Shown piece by piece: positions 3,804-54,220 of a stretch of 64,000 nucleotides of DNA; the first letter of the stretch is position 1, and each line of letters opens with the position of its first letter. Both the position numbers and the translations under genes were made by a program. The DNA is from Escherichia phage kvi: sequence record MN850615.1; one strand, written 5' to 3'. The notes below the pieces were generated by a model, which worked only from the letters and a program-made list of their open reading frames with translations, was not told the DNA's origin and searched no databases.

Positions 3804-4061
3804 TTAATTAAAATCTTCTTTGTCCATCTCTGCGTAGATTACATCCCACGCCCATAAATCAATAAACGCATTATATGTCACGGTGCAATCGTTGTCAATC
3901 ACTTCTTTCGCATATTTCTTGATGTTTTCGTAGGAAACTTGCGGGTCAATTTTGTGTTTACGAAGGTGCGCATATTCATATCTCAGACATTTCATAAACA
4001 GGTCCATCGATTTCTTTTCTCGATGACACTTGGCGATCATAAAATCAAAACTTCGACTCAT
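3804..4061 (-). CDS. hypothetical protein (85 aa; rIIA.1 position)
   Basis: minus-strand ORF immediately upstream of rIIA. Confidence 0.4.
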   Translation of the reverse strand: MSRSFDFMIAKCHREKKSMDLFMKCLRYEYAHLRKHKIDPQVSYENIKKYAKEVIDNDCTVTYNAFIDLWAWDVIYAEMDKEDFN

Positions 4062-4072
4062 TTTTCTACTCC

Positions 4073-4267
4073 TTATACATTTTCAATTACCCATTGCAGA
4101 TGGGCTTCTGCGTCAACCAGTTCAGCGCGGCTTTTCTCTAAGCACTTGCTGTATTCTTTACGTTCCCACTCGGCAATTTCGTTTTTCAGGACTTCTTCAT
4201 AGTAAGCAATTACGCCTTTCAGGTCTGAAACTTTACGGCTTGCCAATTCGATGTAATGGTTACGCAT
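4073..4267 (-). CDS. hypothetical protein (64 aa)
   Basis: minus-strand ORF, tight spacing to neighbours. Confidence 0.35.
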   Translation of the reverse strand: MRNHYIELASRKVSDLKGVIAYYEEVLKNEIAEWERKEYSKCLEKSRAELVDAEAHLQWVIENV

Positions 4268-4454
4268 TTTGATTCTCCTTTGTTACTAGATAACGAATTT
4301 GGTCTTGCATTGCGATCAGTTCCCAGCGTGCTACTTTCATCATGGAAACTGACTCTTTGAACATAATATTAGCTTTTTCCTTCTCCCCTGTCAAGTAGAT
4401 TTCTGCAATTTTTTCACAAAATTTTTGAGTTTCTTCATTCTTAAACGGTTTCAT
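4260..4454 (-). CDS. hypothetical protein (64 aa)
   Basis: ATG at 4454 with AAAAGG RBS downstream of a PeSL-type promoter; the track ORF begins at an upstream TTG. Confidence 0.4.
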   Translation of the reverse strand: MKPFKNEETQKFCEKIAEIYLTGEKEKANIMFKESVSMMKVARWELIAMQDQIRYLVTKENQNA

Positions 4455-5443: not shown

Positions 5444-7267
5444 TTATGACGCCATCCATGCCTTCCTCATGTCTGAATCTTCACTATAGAGCAAATCGAA
5501 TAGCTCTTTATAGTTTTCCGGTAACGTGATGATCTCCATGACAGGATCGTTGATCACGCGATGATAGTCTGATTCTGTGAGCGATGCTAAACCTTTGATA
5601 TATCGAATGTTGTAACCTTTGATATTATCTCGGTCGGTCTCAAAATCTTCTAGGTCATAATACCATCGAACATCATCACCTTTCTTTGGTTCCGCAATGA
5701 TAATAGGTGTTTTGATAAACCGGATTCGTCCATCTTCGAACAATTCAGGCCAACGAGCAAAGAAAGAGATCAGACTAGGTTTAATAGACCCGATCCCGTC
5801 AGTATCAGCGTCTGTCATAATCGCAATATTTTTGTATTGCATAACTTCCAATGCATCAACACCAAATTGCAAGCCAGTGATCGCCATGATGTTAAAAATT
5901 TCGGCGTTCTTAACGATCTTTGCCTCCGGTTGTTCCCACGTTGTAAGAGTTTTGCCTCGCAACGGGAAACCTCCATGTAAATCTGGATCACGTACAGAGA
6001 CCAGATAGTTGATCGCGGAATCACCTTCCGTCAAAAACAGGGTAGTTTCTGCGTCAGTTCCAATAAGGTTAGCTTTAACGTGTTTTGCTACCTTAGCCCG
6101 TTTCGCTGCTTTTGCTACCTTAGTCGCTGCCGCTTTATCTGCTGCCTCTTTGCGTGCCAGGACTACAGCAATAATAGGCATGATAATGTTTTCTTTCTTC
6201 GCAATGACTTTAGCCAGCTTTTTAAAATCAAGATCAATATGACGCTTGATATCACCAGTTGGATTAGTCAATCGTTCTTTTGTCTGTGAATCAAAACGAA
6301 GGTTAGGCAATTCACGAACAATAAGAATACAGGTCAATCCAGACTTAACCGCAGCTTTAGTAACATCAACCTTATGTTCTTTCTTGATTCGTTTTACAAT
6401 CTCTTCACAAAGATCATCTGTCACGTAGTCTACGTGTGTTCCCCCGTTTTTGGTAAACAGACCATTAGCAAAGGATACTGATTTAAAACCTTCTCCCTCG
6501 ACCGCAGGAACTAGGGCAAGTGAAAAGTTTTTATCTTCAATGACAAACGGATCATCATTGTATAGTTTAGCATAATCCTTGAACTTACTAACAATACGTT
6601 TACCATTAAACTTAAACGTGATCTTAGGAAAGATTACGCTCAATGATTGCAGACGATCATGAACAATATCTAAAACAGAGTTGTCCATCATATAACCTTC
6701 GAAGTGGTCGAAGTCTGGGCAAAATGTAACCTTTGTTCCCTTCAATTTTGATGGTTTCGATGACCATGTGATATTTTCAGCACCGTTTGTACATTGAACG
6801 GTCATTTCTGTTTCTCCGTCACAGGTCACACCAGTAAACCAATCGCTAAAGAAATTTGACAACGACGACCCCACACCGTTCATCCCTTGCGTTAATCGAT
6901 TGGTATCATCAAAGTTAGACCCTGCTTTTGTTCGTGTCCATGCGGCTACAGGTTGCGGAATCTGCGTGCCCTCTGGAGTAGTAACCATATGTTGAGGAAT
7001 ACCGCGACCATTGTCTGTTACCGTAACAATATTGTTTTGGATATCGACGCTAATCACATTGGCAAATTCAAAATTAGTGCGAATCGCCTCGTCTACAGAG
7101 TTGTCGATGATCTCATCAATGATTTTAACCAGTCCTGGAACATATGAAATTTTTGTCCATTTACCGAACAGGAAACGTTGGTGTTCTTCGTAAGTTGTTG
7201 ATCCTATATACATTCCTGCACGCTTAAGGACATGTTCACGATCAGATAAAATGCGAAACTCACTCAT
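5444..7267 (-). CDS. 39: DNA topoisomerase II large subunit, GyrB-like ATPase (T4 gp39 with the gp60 portion fused in one ORF)
   Basis: 607 aa; GHKL ATPase motifs (DNGRGIP, GMNGVGSS) and TOPRIM region (…TEGDSA…, …MTDADTDG…); one continuous ORF, unlike the split T4 39/60 arrangement. Confidence 0.93.
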   Translation of the reverse strand: MSEFRILSDREHVLKRAGMYIGSTTYEEHQRFLFGKWTKISYVPGLVKIIDEIIDNSVDEAIRTNFEFANVISVDIQNNIVTVTDNGRGIPQHMVTTPEGTQIPQPVAAWTRTKAGSNFDDTNRLTQGMNGVGSSLSNFFSDWFTGVTCDGETEMTVQCTNGAENITWSSKPSKLKGTKVTFCPDFDHFEGYMMDNSVLDIVHDRLQSLSVIFPKITFKFNGKRIVSKFKDYAKLYNDDPFVIEDKNFSLALVPAVEGEGFKSVSFANGLFTKNGGTHVDYVTDDLCEEIVKRIKKEHKVDVTKAAVKSGLTCILIVRELPNLRFDSQTKERLTNPTGDIKRHIDLDFKKLAKVIAKKENIIMPIIAVVLARKEAADKAAATKVAKAAKRAKVAKHVKANLIGTDAETTLFLTEGDSAINYLVSVRDPDLHGGFPLRGKTLTTWEQPEAKIVKNAEIFNIMAITGLQFGVDALEVMQYKNIAIMTDADTDGIGSIKPSLISFFARWPELFEDGRIRFIKTPIIIAEPKKGDDVRWYYDLEDFETDRDNIKGYNIRYIKGLASLTESDYHRVINDPVMEIITLPENYKELFDLLYSEDSDMRKAWMAS

Positions 7268-10203: not shown

Positions 10204-10517
10204 TATCCTAAAATCCTCACCTTGCGAACACAGATAGTATTGAGTTCTCGCCGTACCCGTTCTTTTTCATATTCAGGAATTTTATATTCGATACCATCCC
10301 GAACAATTTCAGAAGACCGGATTATGCCAAATTTTCGTTTAGGTACAACCTTGTATTTCGGTTCACCCGCCAATAGACTCTCACAATAATCTATCTGATC
10401 ACACATTGACGCTAACGCAGCATCATGTGTTTCGCAAGTTAGGACGCGACCTTTCGCGTCCACTGAGTATTGAAAGAATCCGTCTTTATCACGATAACAT
10501 ACAGCAAATACATGCAT
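10203..10517 (-). CDS. hypothetical protein (104 aa; dda.1 position)
   Basis: minus-strand ORF, ATGA overlap with dda. Confidence 0.45.
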   Translation of the reverse strand: MHVFAVCYRDKDGFFQYSVDAKGRVLTCETHDAALASMCDQIDYCESLLAGEPKYKVVPKRKFGIIRSSEIVRDGIEYKIPEYEKERVRRELNTICVRKVRILG

Positions 10518-11272
10518 TATAAACCTACCTTCGCTTTCATCAATTCAATCCACGACGCATCAATCGGAAGCCCGTATTTCACGCGTTCTTTTTGTGCTGG
10601 CGTTAAGTTCTCATACTTAGAAAGAGATTCAATCAAAACGCTGGTATATTTTAGCACGATTTCGGTATTGTTTGCAATAGCCTTAAGTTTTTCTTCTTTC
10701 TTGTTGATTTCGCTAAGGGCTTGCTTGAGATCTGCAATTTTCTGATAACGTTCTTCCATACGGAAGAGAGTATTTTTAATCGCTCGCTCGGCTGCCTCTG
10801 CTTTCTCCGGTTCGTTGTGCTTTTTGTGGCGCTCGATTGCTAATTTCTTTTCTTCGATTGCCATTTCCTGATTTTTGATGCGATTCTCGTTAAGTTCGAT
10901 CCACTCGATGTACTTCGCACGTAGGGCAATTTCATCATCAGAAAGTTTACCGTTAGTTCCTAGTTCCTGGATCTCTTTAAGAGATTCGATAGTGTGATTG
11001 CCACGGAAAGAATTGTATTTCAGTTTAACCGGAATTACATTGCCATCAACATATCCCAGATTGCAATCAATGCGCTCTAAGGAGAGTCCGTCATCACCTT
11101 CACCGAAAGCCTCACCTGAATAGGCACAATGAGTCTGGCGGTAAATGTTACGAACAGTGACTAAGCTCATAGAGAAGTCTTTGTTGCGACGTGAAGCACC
11201 AGCCATGATAGAGTTCAGCCGGAAAACAACCAACGCCAATTCTTCGTTAGATTTAAAAGCAAACAGTTTCAT
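10517..11272 (-). CDS. hypothetical protein (251 aa) with coiled-coil C-terminus; Srd-like by position and size only
   Basis: position after dda as for T4 srd; no sequence-level confirmation possible here. Confidence 0.45.
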   Translation of the reverse strand: MKLFAFKSNEELALVVFRLNSIMAGASRRNKDFSMSLVTVRNIYRQTHCAYSGEAFGEGDDGLSLERIDCNLGYVDGNVIPVKLKYNSFRGNHTIESLKEIQELGTNGKLSDDEIALRAKYIEWIELNENRIKNQEMAIEEKKLAIERHKKHNEPEKAEAAERAIKNTLFRMEERYQKIADLKQALSEINKKEEKLKAIANNTEIVLKYTSVLIESLSKYENLTPAQKERVKYGLPIDASWIELMKAKVGL

Positions 11273-11300
11273 AATTGATTCTCCTTAGTTGGCATGTGTG

Positions 11301-11330
11301 TATTATTGTCTATCTGGTTTGTGCTGTCAA
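11301..11330 (-). promoter_or_regulatory. sigma70-type early promoter
   Basis: TTGACA (11330-11325) with AT-rich -10 (AATAAT/ATAATA) 17-18 nt downstream. Confidence 0.4.
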
Positions 11331-11333
11331 CAC

Positions 11334-11837
11334 TTAAATTAAAGAAAATTTGTAAATCTCTATCAGATCGCCGTTACACGCGTAAACTTCCTCGATCTCA
11401 TCAAGGATCATGGTCGTCCCTGTCTTGTATATGCACTCGCGCTCATCTGCCAACATAGCATACAAAGACAGTCGAGTAGTCGGATTGTCATACTCTTTAG
11501 ACACCACTCGGTCAATAGCATGTTCGTAATAATTCATGCAAGGCTTGGTAGGTTTTATTGCAATAATCTTTCCTGTTGCATAAACATCGGTCGCAAAGTC
11601 CTCTGCTGTTGATTGCAGTGGCGTAAAGCTCATAGGACGCTCTACAACGAAAGAATCGCCTACAATTAAGGTATCCAGCTTACGACCTTCTCTTTTGCTC
11701 ACACCGCGATACAAGGCTTCATGATGCACTAACCGCTCAGTCTTTTCGATCAATCCATTAAGGATCGACATATCGATATTTTCTTTAGAGTTCATCACTT
11801 CATCAATGATGTTAAGTTCTTCTGGTGTAAATTGCAT
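11334..11837 (-). CDS. possible ADP-ribosyltransferase (ModA/ModB-like R-S-E motif)
   Basis: 167 aa; candidate catalytic triad …ALYRGV…, …SFTPLQST…, …ERECIYK…; T4-syntenic mod position; weak. Confidence 0.3.
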   Translation of the reverse strand: MQFTPEELNIIDEVMNSKENIDMSILNGLIEKTERLVHHEALYRGVSKREGRKLDTLIVGDSFVVERPMSFTPLQSTAEDFATDVYATGKIIAIKPTKPCMNYYEHAIDRVVSKEYDNPTTRLSLYAMLADERECIYKTGTTMILDEIEEVYACNGDLIEIYKFSLI

Positions 11838-11870
11838 AATAAAAAAGCCTCCAATCTTTCGACGGGAGGC
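11838..11870 (-). terminator. rho-independent terminator-like hairpin overlapping the RBS of the next gene
   Basis: GCCTCC…GGAGGC stem (11847-11870) followed on minus strand by UUUUUU; the GGAGG arm is also the likely RBS for the ATG at 11837. Confidence 0.4.
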
Positions 11871-11899
11871 ATAATAAAACCATTATAGAGTAGTGTCAA
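11871..11899 (-). promoter_or_regulatory. sigma70-type promoter immediately upstream of the terminator hairpin
   Basis: TTGACA (11899-11894), 17-nt spacer, TATTAT (11876-11871). Confidence 0.35.
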
Positions 11900-11906
11900 C
11901 TAATTT

Positions 11907-12431
11907 TTAGTAGCCTCGTTCTTGACGGGCGAAGTTTTCAGCATTTTTCAGATAGTACAGAATAAAGAGTTCTTGAGCGTCAATACCCAGCGGGATCATC
12001 TTTGACAGAATGAAGTGGATAGCGTCCACAAATTCAAATTTCACTTCAAGCTGATCTTCCGGTGACAGTTCAGAGAATTTACGCGCTCGCGCTTCCCCGT
12101 GGTTCTTTTTCCACATTTTCCAGATTGCACTTGCATCTTTACCATTGGACATTCCACCCAGCGATGTGTAAAGCTCTCGTGTTTCGTCTGCGATAGCGTC
12201 ATCCATCCGCTGCATCCAATCCAGCATTTCACCGCAAGTCTCTAGCTTAGTTGGATTTGGGACCCAATCAAATTTTTCGGATAGTGCAACCTGCAAACCA
12301 GTTTGCATTTCGAGCATCACCTGAAACGGATCTTTACCTTCTGCAATCGCGTGATGATATGCGGCGATAGCCGCGTTAATATCTTTTTCGTTAACCAGAC
12401 CAGCACAAGAATTAAATTCTGACATATTCAC
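11907..12431 (-). CDS. MazG-like nucleoside triphosphate pyrophosphohydrolase (T4 gp56 dCTPase position)
   Basis: 174 aa; acidic EExxE-like motifs (…ETRELYTSLG…, …EDQLEVKFEFVD…); sits just downstream of primase gene 61 as T4 gene 56 does. Confidence 0.5.
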   Translation of the reverse strand: MNMSEFNSCAGLVNEKDINAAIAAYHHAIAEGKDPFQVMLEMQTGLQVALSEKFDWVPNPTKLETCGEMLDWMQRMDDAIADETRELYTSLGGMSNGKDASAIWKMWKKNHGEARARKFSELSPEDQLEVKFEFVDAIHFILSKMIPLGIDAQELFILYYLKNAENFARQERGY

Positions 12432-49906: not shown

Positions 49907-50305
49907 TTAAGCCAGTCGAGTGAGTTTATAAATTGTTTTAAAGCATAGAGCTTTGATATCGTCTAAAACGCTCTGTAACGAGCTATCAACATCATTATAA
50001 ATCTCACTAGCCATTTGCGTTAACTCTTGCAAATAGGCAATTTCGCTAATCTCCTTGCGAACGACCAACGTTGGCTGATAACGACCAGTGATCCCAATAT
50101 TGGTTTCAGTGAAATCATCAACCAATTCTTGCATTTCAAGATAGAACTCTTCTAGAGCCTTATGTTTTGCATAAGATCCAGGACCAGTTACCCCAAAATG
50201 CGCAGAATGCATATAAGTAACACTCATCAGACATTCACCGATAAAGCGGTCAACTTTATTATCTTTTCCCTCTTCGGACGTCTTTCGAAAATCACTGAAT
50301 TTCAT
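49907..50305 (-). CDS. hypothetical protein (132 aa)
   Basis: ATG at 50305 (MKFSDFRK…); track ORF extends upstream into the neighbouring gene. Confidence 0.4.
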   Translation of the reverse strand: MKFSDFRKTSEEGKDNKVDRFIGECLMSVTYMHSAHFGVTGPGSYAKHKALEEFYLEMQELVDDFTETNIGITGRYQPTLVVRKEISEIAYLQELTQMASEIYNDVDSSLQSVLDDIKALCFKTIYKLTRLA

Positions 50306-50594
50306 GTTCTCGATTCTCCATATTATGCAACATAACAAACTGTTGTGCGGCATATTCCCCCATAATAAAACACTGCTTAGAATCCATACATTTACTACGA
50401 GCATACATCTTCATAATATGGGCATGAAATTTCTGGCTGGTTTCAATAGAAGGAGATATTTTGTTTACATATACTATCATTGCACCGTCGAAATAATCAG
50501 TAAAGTCACCAGTTGGATCATATTGATCAGCACTGACACTTCCGACCGCAGTCAAGCATATTGCCGCTGTTAGAGTTTTACGAATAAATGACAT
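50292..50594 (-). CDS. secreted/periplasmic protein (100 aa) with N-terminal signal peptide
   Basis: MSFIRKTLTAAICLTAVGSVSA signal-like N-terminus; TATAAATA motif ~30 nt upstream. Confidence 0.45.
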   Translation of the reverse strand: MSFIRKTLTAAICLTAVGSVSADQYDPTGDFTDYFDGAMIVYVNKISPSIETSQKFHAHIMKMYARSKCMDSKQCFIMGEYAAQQFVMLHNMENREHEIQ

Positions 50595-50662: not shown

Positions 50663-51259
50663 TTATTTGGTAGTACCGTCAATAAAATGTTTACGACACA
50701 CAGAAACATATTTATCCTCTGCGCCGACTTCTATTTGAGCACCATCGCGAATAACATTACCCTCTTTATCTACACGAAGGACCATTGTTGCTTTCTTGCC
50801 ACAATGACAAATACCCTTCATTTCGACCAGTTTATCAGCAAATGCCATTAATGCCGCAGATCCTTCAAATAGATTGCCCTGAAAGTCAGTGCGAAGGCCA
50901 TAGCACAGTACAGGGATATTTGCATCATCAACAAGCGCACACAAGCCTAAAACATGCTCTTTAGTCATAAATTGGGCTTCGTCTACAAAAACTGCATCTG
51001 GACGCCATCGATCCGGTCTACGCTTACCTAACGATTCACGATAAACCAAGTCGAAAAGATCATCCGATTTAGTGAAGGTGATCGCTGGAGCACTTAGACC
51101 AATTCGGGAAACGACTTCACTTTCTGAATCTCGATTATCAATCGCTGGCTTAAGAATTAATACTCGCATATCACGTTCTGTATAGTTATAAGCACTTTGT
51201 AACAGGGAAGTTGATTTGCCAGCGTTCATAGATGCATAGTAGAAATATAATTGCGCCAT
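50663..51259 (-). CDS. tk: thymidine kinase
   Basis: 198 aa; Walker A ASMNAGKSTSLLQ, …VFVDEAQF…, zinc-binding C…CHCGKKAT…C; colinear with T4 Tk as recalled. Confidence 0.95.
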   Translation of the reverse strand: MAQLYFYYASMNAGKSTSLLQSAYNYTERDMRVLILKPAIDNRDSESEVVSRIGLSAPAITFTKSDDLFDLVYRESLGKRRPDRWRPDAVFVDEAQFMTKEHVLGLCALVDDANIPVLCYGLRTDFQGNLFEGSAALMAFADKLVEMKGICHCGKKATMVLRVDKEGNVIRDGAQIEVGAEDKYVSVCRKHFIDGTTK

Positions 51260-51552
51260 TAATTAATCTCCAAAAATCCAGCAAGACCTAAACCAATATA
51301 AGTCCAGATACAAAGGAAAAAGAAGCAAACACCCATAGCAAAGATAAATCCGCGTAGTGTCTTTGGATAACCTACCCAATATTCCCGACCATTTTCTAAC
51401 CGGATCAGTTTATTTCCTTGAGAGTCCATATCAATTACAACATGTTTATTTCTGGATTGTAACAGATATTGCTTGACAATCTCAATACCCGCCATAATAA
51501 CAATAACGAAATTAAAAGTCCACATAACAAGGTTAATGATAGTCTCAAGCAT
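51259..51552 (-). CDS. membrane protein (97 aa)
   Basis: two predicted transmembrane segments. Confidence 0.45.
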   Translation of the reverse strand: MLETIINLVMWTFNFVIVIMAGIEIVKQYLLQSRNKHVVIDMDSQGNKLIRLENGREYWVGYPKTLRGFIFAMGVCFFFLCIWTYIGLGLAGFLEIN

Positions 51553-51787
51553 TTTCTATCACCTCCACCCAATCAGGCGTTTCCTGAAATACTCCTTCGC
51601 CTTCGTGGTGGATGCATCCTTTATTGCTACAATACATCCACCAATCCCACATTCCCCACGGTAAACGCTGCATATCGTCGTTACAGCAAGTGAAGACAAT
51701 AGGCCAACCACATCTAACACATCGGCAGTTTTCCTTCATGTGAGCGGTATTAGGATTCTTCATAGATGACTCCAATATAATCGACAT
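51545..51787 (-). CDS. Cys/Trp-rich small protein (80 aa)
   Basis: …CRCVRCGWPIVFTCCN…GCIHHEG…; start uncertain. Confidence 0.4.
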   Translation of the reverse strand: MSIILESSMKNPNTAHMKENCRCVRCGWPIVFTCCNDDMQRLPWGMWDWWMYCSNKGCIHHEGEGVFQETPDWVEVIENA

Positions 51788-51990
51788 TTACATTTAGGGC
51801 AATGCGGTTCTTTAATATAATACCCGTCTGTCTTTGGAACACTAACAGGAGCGGTTTTTATATTGTATTCCGTGAAACAACGAAAACAAGTTACGTTTTC
51901 CACAGACTGACGTTTCACCCAATCACCGGAATAGAGGTCATTTTTATTTGTCATATTCCACCACCACAATGTTAATGTCTGGAGTAGCAA
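51760..51990 (-). CDS. zinc-ribbon-like small protein (76 aa)
   Basis: …CFRCF…CPKCKC…. Confidence 0.4.
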   Translation of the reverse strand: MLLQTLTLWWWNMTNKNDLYSGDWVKRQSVENVTCFRCFTEYNIKTAPVSVPKTDGYYIKEPHCPKCKCRLYWSHL

Positions 51991-52399
51991 TATTAATGAT
52001 CTCTTCTACACATTCCCACTCAAGGCCACCGATACCGCAACCGATTTTAGGAATATAGAAAGGCTGTATAGCACCTTCAAAAACATCATTGAGAGTCTCA
52101 AATCCTTTCAGGATAGCACCATATTCAGCATTTGGACCCGGTCGGAATTGGGTATAGAGATTCACCCCGCACCAGTTATAACCATTAACTCGATGAGTCC
52201 AGACACTAAACCCACCCAGCTTTTCGACCTTACCGCGAGAAGTTTGCTTGTCAATCTCTAACGCTTGCGGGAACTCTTTCGCGATCTTCGCAGCAATACC
52301 AGCGCCCATAGTATGAAAACAATTACAACCATGAATTAAATGACCGTTTCCTTGTTTAAACAGGGCGATGAGATCGCCCTTTACAGTATCAATAATCAT
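51944..52399 (-). CDS. macro domain protein (ADP-ribose binding/hydrolase family)
   Basis: 151 aa; …HGCNCFHTMGAGIAAKIAKEFP… matches the macro-domain GxNxxxxMGxGIAxxF signature. Confidence 0.75.
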   Translation of the reverse strand: MIIDTVKGDLIALFKQGNGHLIHGCNCFHTMGAGIAAKIAKEFPQALEIDKQTSRGKVEKLGGFSVWTHRVNGYNWCGVNLYTQFRPGPNAEYGAILKGFETLNDVFEGAIQPFYIPKIGCGIGGLEWECVEEIINIATPDINIVVVEYDK

Positions 52400-52414: not shown

Positions 52415-52774
52415 TTAGTCACGGGAAGACAACCCAGCCATAAAACGGCTTAACAGTGTGTCGCGATAAGCAAAGCATAATTGCTTATCAGGAGCAGTAT
52501 CACACAAGTTGCGTTTTGTTTTAGCAAAGCTGGCAATACTCAGATCCCATGCTCGATTTTTTCGTTTTTCGTCTCGACCTTGTTTGTATGCTTCATCAAG
52601 TTCGAGCGCGATAAAATCACTACACATGTTATCATCATCACAGAAGGTTTTAATGATCTTTTTGTTGATCTCAAATCCTTTGTATTCGAACTTTGGATAA
52701 GGGCGCTCATTACTAGCAAGCGCACCAGCCGAGAACATCATAGCAATCATAGCAACTATTGTCAACTTTTTCAT
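52415..52774 (-). CDS. secreted protein (119 aa) with signal peptide
   Basis: MKKLTIVAMIAMMFSAGALASN… followed by Cys pairs. Confidence 0.45.
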   Translation of the reverse strand: MKKLTIVAMIAMMFSAGALASNERPYPKFEYKGFEINKKIIKTFCDDDNMCSDFIALELDEAYKQGRDEKRKNRAWDLSIASFAKTKRNLCDTAPDKQLCFAYRDTLLSRFMAGLSSRD

Positions 52775-52781
52775 ATATTCC

Positions 52782-53372
52782 TCAATAGCGTTTAGTTTTA
52801 AGAATGCCTTTACTCTTTAGATGGTTAGCCTTTTTTAGTACGTCATCAGCATAGCCTAACCCAGCTTTATAGTTCCATCCAGCATTGTAAGAAGCTAGCG
52901 CGAGTCGGATATTACCGTTTCTAACATCCAGCCAGTATGCTAACTCATCCATCGCGTAGAATGCAGAAACCTCGCGATTCATGATAAAGTTGATAGTCTG
53001 GCGATCACTCATTTTAACACCGCGCTTTGCATTTTTCGCTTTCACCGTTTTAAGGTAATTTTGAAATAATCCATAAGCATGATGATTTTTCTTTGGTGCT
53101 AAGTTTGCACCCGCGCTTGATTCTTGCCATGCGATACCCGCCAGGATGTGACCTAAACCCTTTCCGTTATAGCGAATATTCGGATGGTCCTTTTTCAACT
53201 TACCGCTTTTCTCGAATTGTTCGCCGTATTGATAGGCGAAATGTAAATTATCTAGTTGGTGTGCTGTAAAGTTGTCTATCGGCGCTTTTTTGATCGGTGC
53301 GCTAGTCGATGCGTGTGTAGCACCAACGGCTAGTGACAGACTCAATACTATCGCTTTTAGAACTTTTAACAT
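52782..53372 (-). CDS. soluble lytic transglycosylase (SLT domain) with signal peptide
   Basis: 196 aa; signal-like N-terminus; …GIAWQESSAGAN… catalytic Glu motif and …ASYNAGWN…. Confidence 0.7.
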   Translation of the reverse strand: MLKVLKAIVLSLSLAVGATHASTSAPIKKAPIDNFTAHQLDNLHFAYQYGEQFEKSGKLKKDHPNIRYNGKGLGHILAGIAWQESSAGANLAPKKNHHAYGLFQNYLKTVKAKNAKRGVKMSDRQTINFIMNREVSAFYAMDELAYWLDVRNGNIRLALASYNAGWNYKAGLGYADDVLKKANHLKSKGILKTKRY

Positions 53373-53406
53373 TAATTTCTCCTGTTTGGCTTAACTTTCT
53401 GATTCC

Positions 53407-53435
53407 ATAATATAGCCATATCACCAGAAAGTCAA
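53407..53435 (-). promoter_or_regulatory. sigma70-type promoter
   Basis: TTGACT (53435-53430), 17-nt spacer, TATTAT (53412-53407). Confidence 0.35.
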
Positions 53436-53457
53436 GCATTATTTTAACCAATCTCCA

Positions 53458-53880
53458 TTATTGGTCAACTTTCAAAACAACAGCCGACATTTTACCCGCC
53501 AGTCGTTTTGGATTCTCTATAATCATTCGGCAGCATAGACCGTGATATGGCTTACCGTCTTCAATTAGGTCTACTGTCATCCCGATCCACATGTTACCGT
53601 CAGTAATTTCTAATCGATTAGGTCGGTCTTCCATTTTCAGGAAGTCGAAGATCTCCGGCAAACGAGTTTCTACCTTATTGAATAGTTCCATTGTCTTATG
53701 TTCATCGATATGACGATCGGTTAGACGGTCGATCATATGCGGACTAAAGCGAATGAAAATATACTCACCGTAACCATTATTCAAGCACTTTTCTTTGATT
53801 TGTGCGTTAGTCTTACGCATTTCAGTTTCGAAGAATCTGCGCAGCTTGCTACGGCGAACATGTACGTTAATTGTTTCCAT
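53458..53880 (-). CDS. regB: RegB-like sequence-specific endoribonuclease
   Basis: 140 aa from ATG at 53880 (AAAGGA RBS); resembles T4 RegB in size and motifs (…RRSKLRR…, …RLEITDGNMWIG…) and lies next to tk; recall-based. Confidence 0.5.
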   Translation of the reverse strand: METINVHVRRSKLRRFFETEMRKTNAQIKEKCLNNGYGEYIFIRFSPHMIDRLTDRHIDEHKTMELFNKVETRLPEIFDFLKMEDRPNRLEITDGNMWIGMTVDLIEDGKPYHGLCCRMIIENPKRLAGKMSAVVLKVDQ

Positions 53881-53884
53881 TTTA

Positions 53885-54220
53885 TTATCCTTTCTTAAAC
53901 AAATTGCGAAGCCAGTATACAAACGGGATTTCTTTAAACTTGAATTTCTCTATAGTTAATTCTTTAGTAGCAAGATGAATACCATAAGCATCATGTGTCA
54001 CGATATGCCATTTTCTATAGTCCAAATGTGAACAACCGTCTGGATCTAGGTTAATAAGAGTTTCTCGCTCACTAGGATTATTTTTCCACAATTTTGTAAT
54101 AGGATCGCACATAATTCGACCTAGCGTACCATGAATAATCTCACAACGGTAAAGTTTTCCAGCAGTGAGATAGGCGCACCCGTCATAGTCGGTATAAACA
54201 AACACTTCTTTAACACTCAT
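53885..54220 (-). CDS. small protein (111 aa), tandem paralogue family 3
   Basis: ATG at 54220 (GGAG RBS, conserved leader); shared motif DGCSHLD…W. Confidence 0.4.
   Translation of the reverse strand: MSVKEVFVYTDYDGCAYLTAGKLYRCEIIHGTLGRIMCDPITKLWKNNPSERETLINLDPDGCSHLDYRKWHIVTHDAYGIHLATKELTIEKFKFKEIPFVYWLRNLFKKG

Follow-up and report, generated by a model that had tools for sequence, protein, structure and literature searches.

A stand-alone macrodomain protein of a Krischvirus as the syntenic ortholog of T4 Tk.4 (AdfM) and a probable anti-DarTG2 factor

Introduction

Macrodomains of the TARG1/DarG class are known for action on Asp/Glu-ester or thymidine linkages (PMC9411070). HIDEN-SEQ of phage T4 on DarTG2 gave tk.4 as its only hit, with insertions depleted specifically in the presence of DarTG2; the gene is required only on hosts with DarTG2 and was renamed adfM (bioRxiv 10.1101/2025.11.20.689424, 2025 preprint). 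A clean tk.4 knockout was sensitised to the one DarTG2 system used in that preprint, in which enzymatic removal by Tk.4 is worded as 'it seems likely' (bioRxiv 10.1101/2025.11.20.689424). T4 devoid of adfA and adfN is still DarTG2-resistant (PMC11825919). For the AdfM of phage PhiKZ, it was biochemically shown that the protein hydrolyses DarT2-made ADP-ribose on DNA (PMC13309987). SCO6735 of Streptomyces coelicolor cleaves ADP-ribose off thymidines in DNA and gives protection against DarT, while its Q85A variant is dead; Q85 corresponds to DarG K80 and TARG1 K84 (PMC9411070). On the side of the transferases, T4 ModB, whose R73 is catalytic, makes arginine N-glycosidic ADP-ribose, a mark that ARH1 takes off but hydroxylamine leaves intact (PMC10468400).

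Here, a stretch of 64,000 nucleotides from Escherichia phage kvi (MN850615.1), referred to as the window, was analysed. The phage is a Krischvirus, an RB49-like relative of T4. A sequence-only reading of the window had pointed to a macrodomain ORF next to two Cys-rich ORFs, and had proposed a possible ADP-ribosylation writer/eraser pair with a distant ModA-like ORF, which could tune or reverse host-protein ADP-ribosylation or counter host ADP-ribosylating defences. I found that the last of these functions agrees with the genetics of T4 tk.4/adfM on DarTG2 hosts, while the pairing is not supported.

The tk-regB gene cluster

The macrodomain ORF, the two Cys-rich ORFs, and the ModB-like ORF all lie on the minus strand in the ORF map of the window. 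The features discussed are as follows, with the evidence for each.

50663..51259, minus strand: tk, thymidine kinase, downstream synteny anchor (Pfam TK, E 9.6e-52; annotation)
51259..51552, minus strand: hydrophobic small protein of 97 aa at the tk.1 position, putative membrane protein (phrog_16027, E 9.2e-62; W115 annotation)
51545..51763, minus strand: PF23895 Cys/His-rich peptide, 72 aa (Pfam; phrog_2306; W115 annotation of 219 nt)
51760..51954, minus strand: PF23903 zinc-ribbon peptide, 64 aa (Pfam; phrog_4864; W115 annotation of 195 nt)
51944..52399, minus strand: macrodomain gene, 151 aa (Pfam Macro; phrog_335; T4 Tk.4 orthology; synteny)
52415..52774, minus strand: vs, valyl-tRNA synthetase modifier, upstream neighbour of the macrodomain gene and synteny anchor (phrog_1256, E 2.9e-33; annotation)
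52782..53372, minus strand: vs.1-like protein with an SLT lytic transglycosylase domain, synteny anchor (Pfam SLT, E 6.6e-6; phrog_600)
53458..53922, minus strand: regB endoribonuclease, synteny anchor (Pfam REGB_T4, E 3.2e-48; W115 annotation of 423 nt)
11334..11837, minus strand: ModB-type R-S-ExE mono-ADP-ribosyltransferase, 167 aa (identity to RB49 ModB; phrog_832; motif columns; fold)

T4, phage W115, and the window share the gene order tk … tk.4-vs-vs.1-regB. For regB, the annotated relatives use a later ATG that gives 140 aa. The junction sequences show that 15 nt separate the end of vs from the start of the macrodomain gene, which is preceded by a GAGAGG Shine-Dalgarno (SD) sequence, that the two Cys-rich genes 3′ of the macrodomain gene are translationally coupled, and that the gene of the 97-aa protein shares 8 nt with the gene upstream of it and 1 nt with tk. 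The 85-nt gap between regB and vs.1 (53373-53457) is the sole intergenic gap of the cluster with promoter-like sites, which are consensus matches only; the promoter/terminator scan as a whole gave 20 such matches versus 13.5 ± 4.2 in shuffled sequences, that is, no enrichment.

The macrodomain protein and its active site

The macrodomain signature noticed at the outset, HGCNCFHTMGAGIAAKIA, corresponds to residues 23-40 of the 151-aa protein, and the assignment was borne out by profiles and fold alike. The protein matches Pfam Macro (PF01661) over profile positions 1-118 of 118 with 28.7 bits (cut-off 22, E 1.4e-6) and phrog_335 with E 7.9e-63. Its AF2 model (pLDDT 95) has a macrodomain fold according to Foldseek, with TM 0.75-0.81 to TARG1/DarG; the matches include TARG1 (E 3.4e-10), Poa1p, DarG (TM 0.76-0.80), BT1257, and SCO6735 (TM 0.72). 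It is a stand-alone macrodomain of the TARG1/DarG/SCO6735 class.

The key residues are N26, the 31-MGAGIA-36 loop, Q84, and the 117-PKIGCGIGG-125 loop. In an alignment of 64 diverse homologs, N26 is fully invariant, M31-G32-A33-G34 and G120-x-G122 vary little or not at all, and a Gln occupies the Q84 position in 63 of the 64 members. N26 aligns with N22 of Thermus aquaticus DarG and Q84 with its K80. The aligned DarG fragment was the Mycobacterium tuberculosis chain 5M3I, which agrees with T. aquaticus DarG in the motif and in the K80 equivalence.

A profile built from an alignment containing the DarG fragment was left out of consideration, since its strong DarG scores are circular. The DarG-free family profile, run against PDB sequences, hit BT1257 (2.5e-15), TARG1 (2e-14), SCO6735 (5.7e-14), and DarG (3e-13 and 7e-11), with DarG ranked above none of the other three. 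The sequence and fold scores thus fail to separate DarG from TARG1, Poa1p, or BT1257, so that the protein may act on another ADP-ribose substrate.

Across phages, 2,735 records have a homolog of the macrodomain gene, among them those of Pseudomonas, Vibrio, and Acinetobacter phages. For some phages of Acinetobacter and Vibrio, this homolog adjoins genes for NAMPT or ribose-phosphate pyrophosphokinase.

Orthology with T4 tk.4 and a proposed anti-DarTG2 role

The macrodomain protein shares 44% identity with T4 Tk.4 over 153 columns, which is the full length (E 3e-45). The two proteins are similar in size (151 versus 155 aa), lie between vs and the tk cassette, and have the same invariant residues, the LYTQ motif included. 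The downstream genes differ: T4 has two DUF7438 genes and a DUF7202 gene where the window has PF23903, PF23895, and the small membrane protein. Judging from sequence and gene order, the gene is the Krischvirus syntenic ortholog of T4 tk.4 (adfM). The gene and the anti-DarTG2 role of its T4 ortholog are thus already known. A literature search for RB49 together with DarTG phenotypes found no paper linking the two, and the query 'AdfM' returned mostly unrelated acronyms.

The best explanation of 51944-52399 is probably an anti-DarTG2 macrodomain of the Tk.4/AdfM type that removes DarT2-made thymidine-ADP-ribose from phage DNA. The function of the Krischvirus protein itself is likely to be the one suggested by T4 Tk.4, PhiKZ AdfM, and SCO6735, although specificity may have drifted at 44% identity to Tk.4. 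In the proposed mechanism, the protein would be made early in infection as an 'orphan antitoxin-like' stand-alone macrodomain. In a host with DarTG2, DarT2 would ADP-ribosylate thymidines of single-stranded phage DNA and block replication. The macrodomain would bind the ADP-ribose through N26 and the MGAGIA and IGCGIGG loops and hydrolyse the ribose-thymine bond, restoring the DNA, and would do so without the C-terminal DarT-binding domain of DarG. Because Gln84 stands where DarG has Lys80, catalysis would most likely be of the SCO6735 type, in which the Gln positions the substrate and an activated water, rather than the Lys-based chemistry of DarG and TARG1. The assignment as AdfM would predict that RB49-like phages are resistant to DarTG2, which bears on host-range prediction and on the choice of therapy phages.

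Comparison with DarG, chimallivirus AdfM, and SCO6735

DarG was the sole match of the protein in NCBIfam (2.8e-13, macro part only) and in PADLOC (PDLC02990, 1.4e-14, profile positions 3-141 of 329). However, membership in the DarG family was rejected. The score against NF048014 is 49.9 bits versus a cut-off of 250 and covers only positions 2-141 of 338; the catalytic Lys of the PTK motif (K80 in T. aquaticus) is replaced by Gln84; and there is no adjacent darT, the neighbours being vs and the zinc-ribbon peptide. PADLOC gave no match for the neighbours of the macrodomain gene that were tested. What the protein has in common with DarG (NF048014; PDB 5M31, 5M3E, 5M3I) is the macrodomain class, the Asn (N22 in DarG, N26 here), both glycine loops, and presumably the substrate, thymidine-linked ADP-ribose on ssDNA. 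In contrast to DarG, it has no C-terminal DarT-binding domain, no Lys80, and no darT neighbour. Presumably, the protein works like the macrodomain of DarG but is no DarG.

The chimallivirus AdfM (PhiKZ gp104, PMC13309987) is likewise a phage-encoded stand-alone macrodomain that counters DarTG2. Its identity to the window protein is only 22-26%, and it is of the Lys type (FPTK, K78) as is DarG. A further difference is its import into the phage nucleus (PMC13309987). It is a separate lineage that shares the name by chance.

SCO6735 (PDB 5E3B) is also a stand-alone macrodomain with a Gln at the Lys position. The equivalence of its Q85 with Q84 of the window protein is transitive, through the DarG alignments and PMC9411070, and is not taken from a direct alignment. 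It differs in being bacterial and chromosomal, and is remote (profile E 5.7e-14; 21% identity in the structural alignment). The window protein is of the Gln type as SCO6735 is, and is likely to hydrolyse thymidine-ADP-ribose, as predicted by this comparison. That the T4-type family lacks the catalytic lysine of DarG and has the SCO6735-type glutamine instead is not in the papers cited here, and this replacement makes Q84 and N26 informative on the mechanism. T4-type AdfM proteins, the window protein included, may constitute a distinct lineage of Gln-type DNA de-ADP-ribosylases that is mechanistically SCO6735-like and may stand evolutionarily apart from the Lys-type DarG and chimallivirus AdfM. 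Their ancestors might have been stand-alone macrodomains of bacteria rather than a captured DarG antitoxin.

Alternative functions of the macrodomain protein

The protein may instead be a small-molecule hydrolase that does not act on DNA, namely a phosphatase of ADP-ribose-1′′-phosphate, a deacetylase of O-acetyl-ADP-ribose, or an enzyme that degrades immune signals based on ADP-ribose. One of the best neighbours in both structure and sequence is Poa1p, an ADP-ribose-1′′-phosphate phosphatase, the genes next to the Acinetobacter and Vibrio phage homologs mentioned above would fit such a role, and a comparative survey proposes low-molecular-weight ADP-ribose derivatives as the main substrates of phage macrodomains (PMC9503650). 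The name 'phosphatase' (A1pp motif), under which T4 Tk.4 and PHROG 335 are annotated, also speaks for it but is a motif-based transfer. On the other hand, loss of the gene in T4 sensitises the phage specifically to DarTG2, the system of a DNA-modifying toxin (bioRxiv 10.1101/2025.11.20.689424), and SCO6735, the closest biochemically studied relative of the Gln type, is a DNA thymidine-ADP-ribose hydrolase (PMC9411070). I consider a small-molecule substrate unlikely.

It is also conceivable that the protein is a decoy that binds ADP-ribosylated DNA or inhibits DarT2 directly, without hydrolysis. The replacement of Lys80 by Gln84 throughout the T4-type family (63/64) could be read in this way, and the dead variants SCO6735 Q85A, DarG K80A, and TARG1 K84A retain their inhibition of DarT in vitro (PMC9411070). 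However, the Gln-bearing SCO6735, whose turn-over rate is described as high next to those of TARG1 and DarG, needs its Gln (PMC9411070). Across the 64 homologs, there is little or no variation at Q84, at N26, and in the two glycine loops, which is what an active site would show, and the DarT-binding domain of DarG is missing from the window protein. A purely non-catalytic role seems quite improbable, and hydrolysis of thymidine-ADP-ribose remains the preferred reading.

The ModB-like ADP-ribosyltransferase

The product of 11334-11837 is 100% identical to the annotated RB49 ModB and matches phrog_832 with E 1e-20. It reaches T4-like Mod proteins by tblastn with E values of 1e-10 to 6e-4, and all of its database homologs belong to the precomputed family PF26816. 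The local Pfam copy gave no match for it, nor for T4 ModA/ModB, and a PDB sequence search with it found nothing. The R-S-E triad suspected in the sequence-only reading was recovered in the alignments as R44-G45, S70-F-T, and E132-R-E134, which are invariant in T4 ModB (R73/G74), ModA, and nine further homologs. The fold is consistent with this: the AF2 model (pLDDT 87.9, pTM 0.81) found only R-S-E ADP-ribosyltransferases (ARTs) among its top 50 Foldseek matches, Certhrax included (E 1.6e-7, TMq about 0.6), so that the 167-aa protein does have the NAD-binding fold expected of it. By its sequence and modelled structure, it is a true ModA/ModB-type R-S-ExE ADP-ribosyltransferase.

The gene sits between srd (10517-11272) and gene 56 (11907-12431). 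With T4 ModB and ModA it shares the R-S-ExE motif, the ART fold, and the position adjoining srd. It is shorter (167 aa versus 207 for ModB and 200 for ModA), lacks the N-terminal ~31 residues, and is only ~25-33% identical, so its targets cannot be assumed to be theirs. One Mod paralog was detected in RB49-like records, while T4 has two. ModB-like genes were found by tblastn in 490 phage records, with enterobacterial hosts only among the names listed.

The transferase would ADP-ribosylate host proteins on arginine independently of the macrodomain protein. The reading that the macrodomain reverses or tunes this modification has some points in its favour. The candidate writer and the candidate eraser are both real and both in one phage, and the T4 counterparts of the two gene clusters are prereplicative genes. 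SCO6735 is active on a protein as well, namely auto-modified PARP1 (PMC9411070). However, an ART and a macrodomain in one phage do not by themselves make a writer/eraser circuit. About 40 kb separates the two genes, which belong to different clusters, and a ModB mark on arginine is removed by an ARH-type enzyme, while the macrodomain protein is of the TARG1/DarG/SCO6735 class. Where a structural neighbour of the ART in the PDB comes with an immunity partner, the two are described as an ART-ARH pair and not as a macrodomain pair. The record counts are unequal by ~5 times (2,735 versus 490) and the host ranges differ, which is suggestive only, as tblastn under-detects divergent ARTs. The T4 tk.4 insertions were depleted specifically in the presence of DarTG2 (bioRxiv 10.1101/2025.11.20.689424). 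Taken together, the writer/eraser pair is highly improbable.

Zinc-binding peptides downstream of the macrodomain gene

The two Cys-rich ORFs were first delimited as 51545-51787 and 51760-51990. Both are real, conserved genes, co-oriented and overlapping as described, but their start codons were probably placed too far upstream. The 51545-51787 ORF matches PF23895 (Phage_zn_bind; E 1e-33, 115.6 bits versus a cut-off of 27) and phrog_2306 (E 4.7e-34), and the 51760-51990 ORF, of 76 aa, matches PF23903 (Phage_zn_bind_2; E 1.8e-23, 82.6 bits versus a cut-off of 27) and phrog_4864 (E 5e-34). The upstream starts are doubtful because both ORFs match their profiles only from residue 13 onward, and because of the W115 annotation, the SD sequences, and the overlap geometry. 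For the PF23903 peptide, the favoured start is the ATG at 51954, giving 64 aa and an 11-nt overlap with the end of the macrodomain gene, and the TTG at 51990 is unlikely. For the PF23895 peptide, it is the ATG at 51763, giving 72 aa; a GGAG lies 6 nt before this ATG, which overlaps the preceding gene in an ATGA, whereas the alternative in-frame ATG at 51787 has no SD sequence. The PF23903 peptide has the motif C23xxC26 … C52xxC55xC57, and the Cys/His-rich PF23895 peptide has seven Cys residues.

The implied link between these peptides and the macrodomain was not sustained. The same slots in T4 hold unrelated genes (DUF7438 twice and DUF7202), the PF23903 gene of Vequintavirus lies two genes downstream of the macrodomain gene, and that of the jumbo phage GAP32 follows an Acb1-like gene, not a macrodomain gene. 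Both peptides are far rarer among phages than the macrodomain gene, with PF23895 in 785 phage records and PF23903 in 233, Vequintavirus and jumbo phages included. The peptides are members of a variable cassette and co-translated neighbours of the macrodomain gene, and a macrodomain-specific link is weak. In a jumbo phage, the PF23903 gene is also found beside Acb1, Sir2, Nudix, and NAD-salvage genes, and its peptide might be an uncharacterised accessory counter-defence factor; this reading and, separately, that of a distinct Gln-type AdfM lineage are tentative and on balance rather less likely than not.

A T4 tk.4/adfM ortholog in a Krischvirus

The window derives from an RB49-like phage of the T4 family (Straboviridae), a Krischvirus. 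Around its macrodomain gene, 3.4 kb are 97.5-98.7% identical to the best 15 Krischvirus genomes among the matches listed. The gene order was read from profile searches and the annotation of phage W115. Every gene of this region lies on the minus strand.

Genes around the macrodomain gene, in order of transcription
53458-53922, minus strand, regB
52782-53372, minus strand, vs.1-like SLT protein
52415-52774, minus strand, vs, directly upstream of the macrodomain gene
51944-52399, minus strand, macrodomain protein
51760-51954, minus strand, PF23903 zinc-ribbon peptide
51545-51763, minus strand, PF23895 Cys/His-rich peptide
51259-51552, minus strand, small membrane protein
50663-51259, minus strand, thymidine kinase (tk)

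The T4 frame is the same: regB, vs.1, vs, tk.4, tk.3, tk.2, tk.1, and tk. The junction sequences revealed overlaps of 11, 4, 8, and 1 nt, which chain the macrodomain, PF23903, PF23895, membrane protein, and tk genes, as well as Shine-Dalgarno motifs. The regB ORF (TTG start) has 154 residues versus 140 annotated in W115, and an rI.-1-like ORF (49907-50404) has 165 versus 132; the true starts of both are probably internal ATGs.

The macro-domain signature recognized in the sequence-only reading (residues 23-40) was borne out. The ORF scores 28.7 bits against a Pfam Macro cut-off of 22 and matches PHROG 335 (E 7.9e-63). An AlphaFold2 model built from 64 homologs (mean pLDDT 95) superposes on TARG1, Poa1p, DarG, BT1257, and SCO6735 with TM-scores of 0.72-0.81. 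T4 Tk.4 is 44% identical over the full length (E 3e-45) and occupies the same genomic slot. As judged from sequence and position, the protein is the ortholog of T4 Tk.4.

It is known that T4 lacking adfA and adfN is still resistant to DarTG2 (PMC11825919), a toxin-antitoxin defence whose toxin DarT2 ADP-ribosylates thymidines in DNA. This gap is closed by a transposon-sequencing screen of T4 in cells that express DarTG2, in which tk.4 was the sole significant hit. A clean tk.4 deletion makes T4 DarTG2-sensitive, and the gene was renamed adfM (anti-DarT factor macrodomain); enzymatic removal of ADP-ribose from DNA by T4 AdfM was inferred by the authors, not demonstrated (bioRxiv 10.1101/2025.11.20.689424). 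In independent work, PhiKZ gp104, a chimallivirus macrodomain likewise called AdfM, strips DarT2-made ADP-ribose off DNA (PMC13309987). The macrodomain gene of the window, as the tk.4/adfM ortholog, is a known phage counter-defence gene. Of the three roles proposed from the sequence, it is the last, counteraction of host defences that act by ADP-ribosylation, that fits. The family is well known, since 2,735 phage records, spread over many host genera, contain homologs, and these already carry the names 'Tk.4', 'macro domain protein', or 'phosphatase'.

T4 RefSeq (NC_000866.4) still calls tk.4 'phosphatase'. This name, as well as 'molybdopterin-guanine dinucleotide biosynthesis protein MobD' for mobD.4 (60 aa) and 'Mrh transcription modulator' for modA.3, looks like a spurious transfer (two T4 segments, 1853-2035 and 3890-4360). 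In the HIDEN-SEQ preprint, T4 vs is the gene depleted most in minimal versus rich medium (bioRxiv 10.1101/2025.11.20.689424). The vs/macrodomain cluster joins a nutrient-conditional gene with a defence-conditional gene.

In the unrelated Acinetobacter phage vB_AbaM_B09_Aci01-1 and Vibrio phages Gary and AG74, a Tk.4-like gene adjoins genes for nicotinamide phosphoribosyltransferase or ribose-phosphate pyrophosphokinase, which are parts of phage NAD+-reconstitution pathways. Thus, in some phage lineages the macrodomain may belong to an NAD/ADP-ribose recycling module.

A glutamine at the catalytic lysine position

NCBIfam and PADLOC searches each gave DarG, the DarTG2 antitoxin, as the single match, restricted to its macrodomain half; the NCBIfam score is far under the curated cut-off. 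With a DarG-free family profile, DarG was no closer than TARG1, BT1257, or SCO6735. In all alignments, Gln84 (motif LYTQF) lies opposite the catalytic lysine K80 of Thermus aquaticus DarG (motif PTKKHW). The same Gln is present in T4 Tk.4 and in 63 of the 64 family members. In contrast, chimallivirus AdfM (22-26% identity to the window protein) retains the Lys (FPTK). In function the window protein would resemble the DarG macrodomain, but the half-length match and Gln84 in place of K80 set it apart from DarG proper.

SCO6735 has Gln85 where DarG has K80 and TARG1 has K84. It cleaves thymidine-linked ADP-ribose on DNA, its Q85A variant is inactive, and an activated-water mechanism is likely (PMC9411070). 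By this precedent, the TARG1/DarG/SCO6735 class is where the T4-type AdfM family fits best, as a Gln-type member. The most likely activity of the macrodomain is the removal, by Gln-type catalysis, of the ADP-ribose that DarT2 places on thymidines of phage DNA.

Pelagimonas phthalicica (SOAP01000002.1, locus 6001-6459) encodes a Gln-type macrodomain of 152 aa that shares 44% identity with the window protein. This stand-alone chromosomal gene has housekeeping-like neighbours (peroxiredoxin, M23 peptidase, and Trp halogenase), with no DarT, phage, or prophage gene nearby. The setting is similar to that of SCO6735.

A separate ModB-like enzyme

The ORF at 11334-11837 (minus strand, 167 aa), suspected from the sequence of having an R-S-E triad, is indeed an ADP-ribosyltransferase (ART). 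It is 100% identical to annotated RB49 ModB, and its R44-G45, S70, and E132-x-E134 recur unchanged in T4 ModB and ModA; mutation of R73, the T4 ModB residue at the R44 position, inactivates that enzyme (PMC10468400). Its model (pLDDT 87.9) matches only R-S-E-class ARTs, among them Certhrax, C3, VIP2, CDTa, and iota toxin; similarity to an NAD-binding fold, whose absence would have counted against the assignment, is thus present. RB49-like phages have this one N-terminally shorter Mod paralog directly between srd and gene 56 (10517-12431), while T4 has modA, modB, about 10 further small genes, soc, and segF there.

Is this enzyme the writer for which the macrodomain is the eraser? No support was found for such a functional pair. 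The two genes are about 40 kb apart. ModB attaches ADP-ribose to arginine, a linkage that ARH1 removes but that withstands hydroxylamine, which cleaves Asp/Glu-linked marks (PMC10468400). Among the PDB neighbours of the ART, the toxin/immunity pair with a partner named in its description is ART-ARH. In phage records, the macrodomain gene outnumbers ModB-like genes about fivefold, and it reaches phages of hosts for which no ModB-like gene was detected; since tblastn under-detects divergent ARTs, this is no more than suggestive. Moreover, T4 tk.4 read counts fell specifically under DarTG2 (bioRxiv 10.1101/2025.11.20.689424). ModB, a known enzyme of host takeover, stands apart from the macrodomain.

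Zinc peptides in a variable cassette

The two Cys-rich ORFs beside the macrodomain gene are real genes (PF23895, E 1e-33; PF23903, E 1.8e-23), while the starts first assigned to them are probably too far upstream. In both long ORFs the profile match starts at residue 13, relatives are annotated with short forms, and the Shine-Dalgarno motifs and overlaps at the junctions agree with these; ATG 51954 (PF23903) and ATG 51763 (PF23895) are the probable starts. Homologs occur in 785 (PF23895) and 233 (PF23903) phage records. In T4, tk.1-tk.3 belong to other families (DUF7438 twice and DUF7202), and no similarity to the three small proteins of the window was found. The zinc peptides are conserved genes within a variable cassette.

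Vequintavirus has a macrodomain gene 70% identical to that of the window, with PF23903 two genes downstream. In the jumbo Cronobacter phage GAP32 (JN882285.1, 918-7909), a PF23903 homolog lies within a dense NAD/ADP-ribose and counter-defence island: NMNAT/ADP-ribose pyrophosphatase, NAMPT, Acb1-like (PF23474, E 5.7e-16), PF23903 peptide, Sir2-like (overlapping by 4 nt), and NUDIX. A specific link of the zinc peptides to the macrodomain was rejected, since T4 has unrelated genes there and PF23903 follows the Acb1-like gene in GAP32. The GAP32 island hints that PF23903 goes with counter-defence enzymes in general; guilt by association ties the zinc peptides weakly to counter-defence and NAD-metabolism genes.

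Three unannotated 137-143 kb records labelled as Campylobacter jejuni phages (A147, D#, and A140; MG065644.1, MG065647.1, and MG065674.1) have macrodomain and PF23903 genes about 67-78% identical to those of the window, the same as in rV5-like Vequintavirus phages of E. coli. This identity suggests mislabelled or contaminating Vequintavirus sequences.
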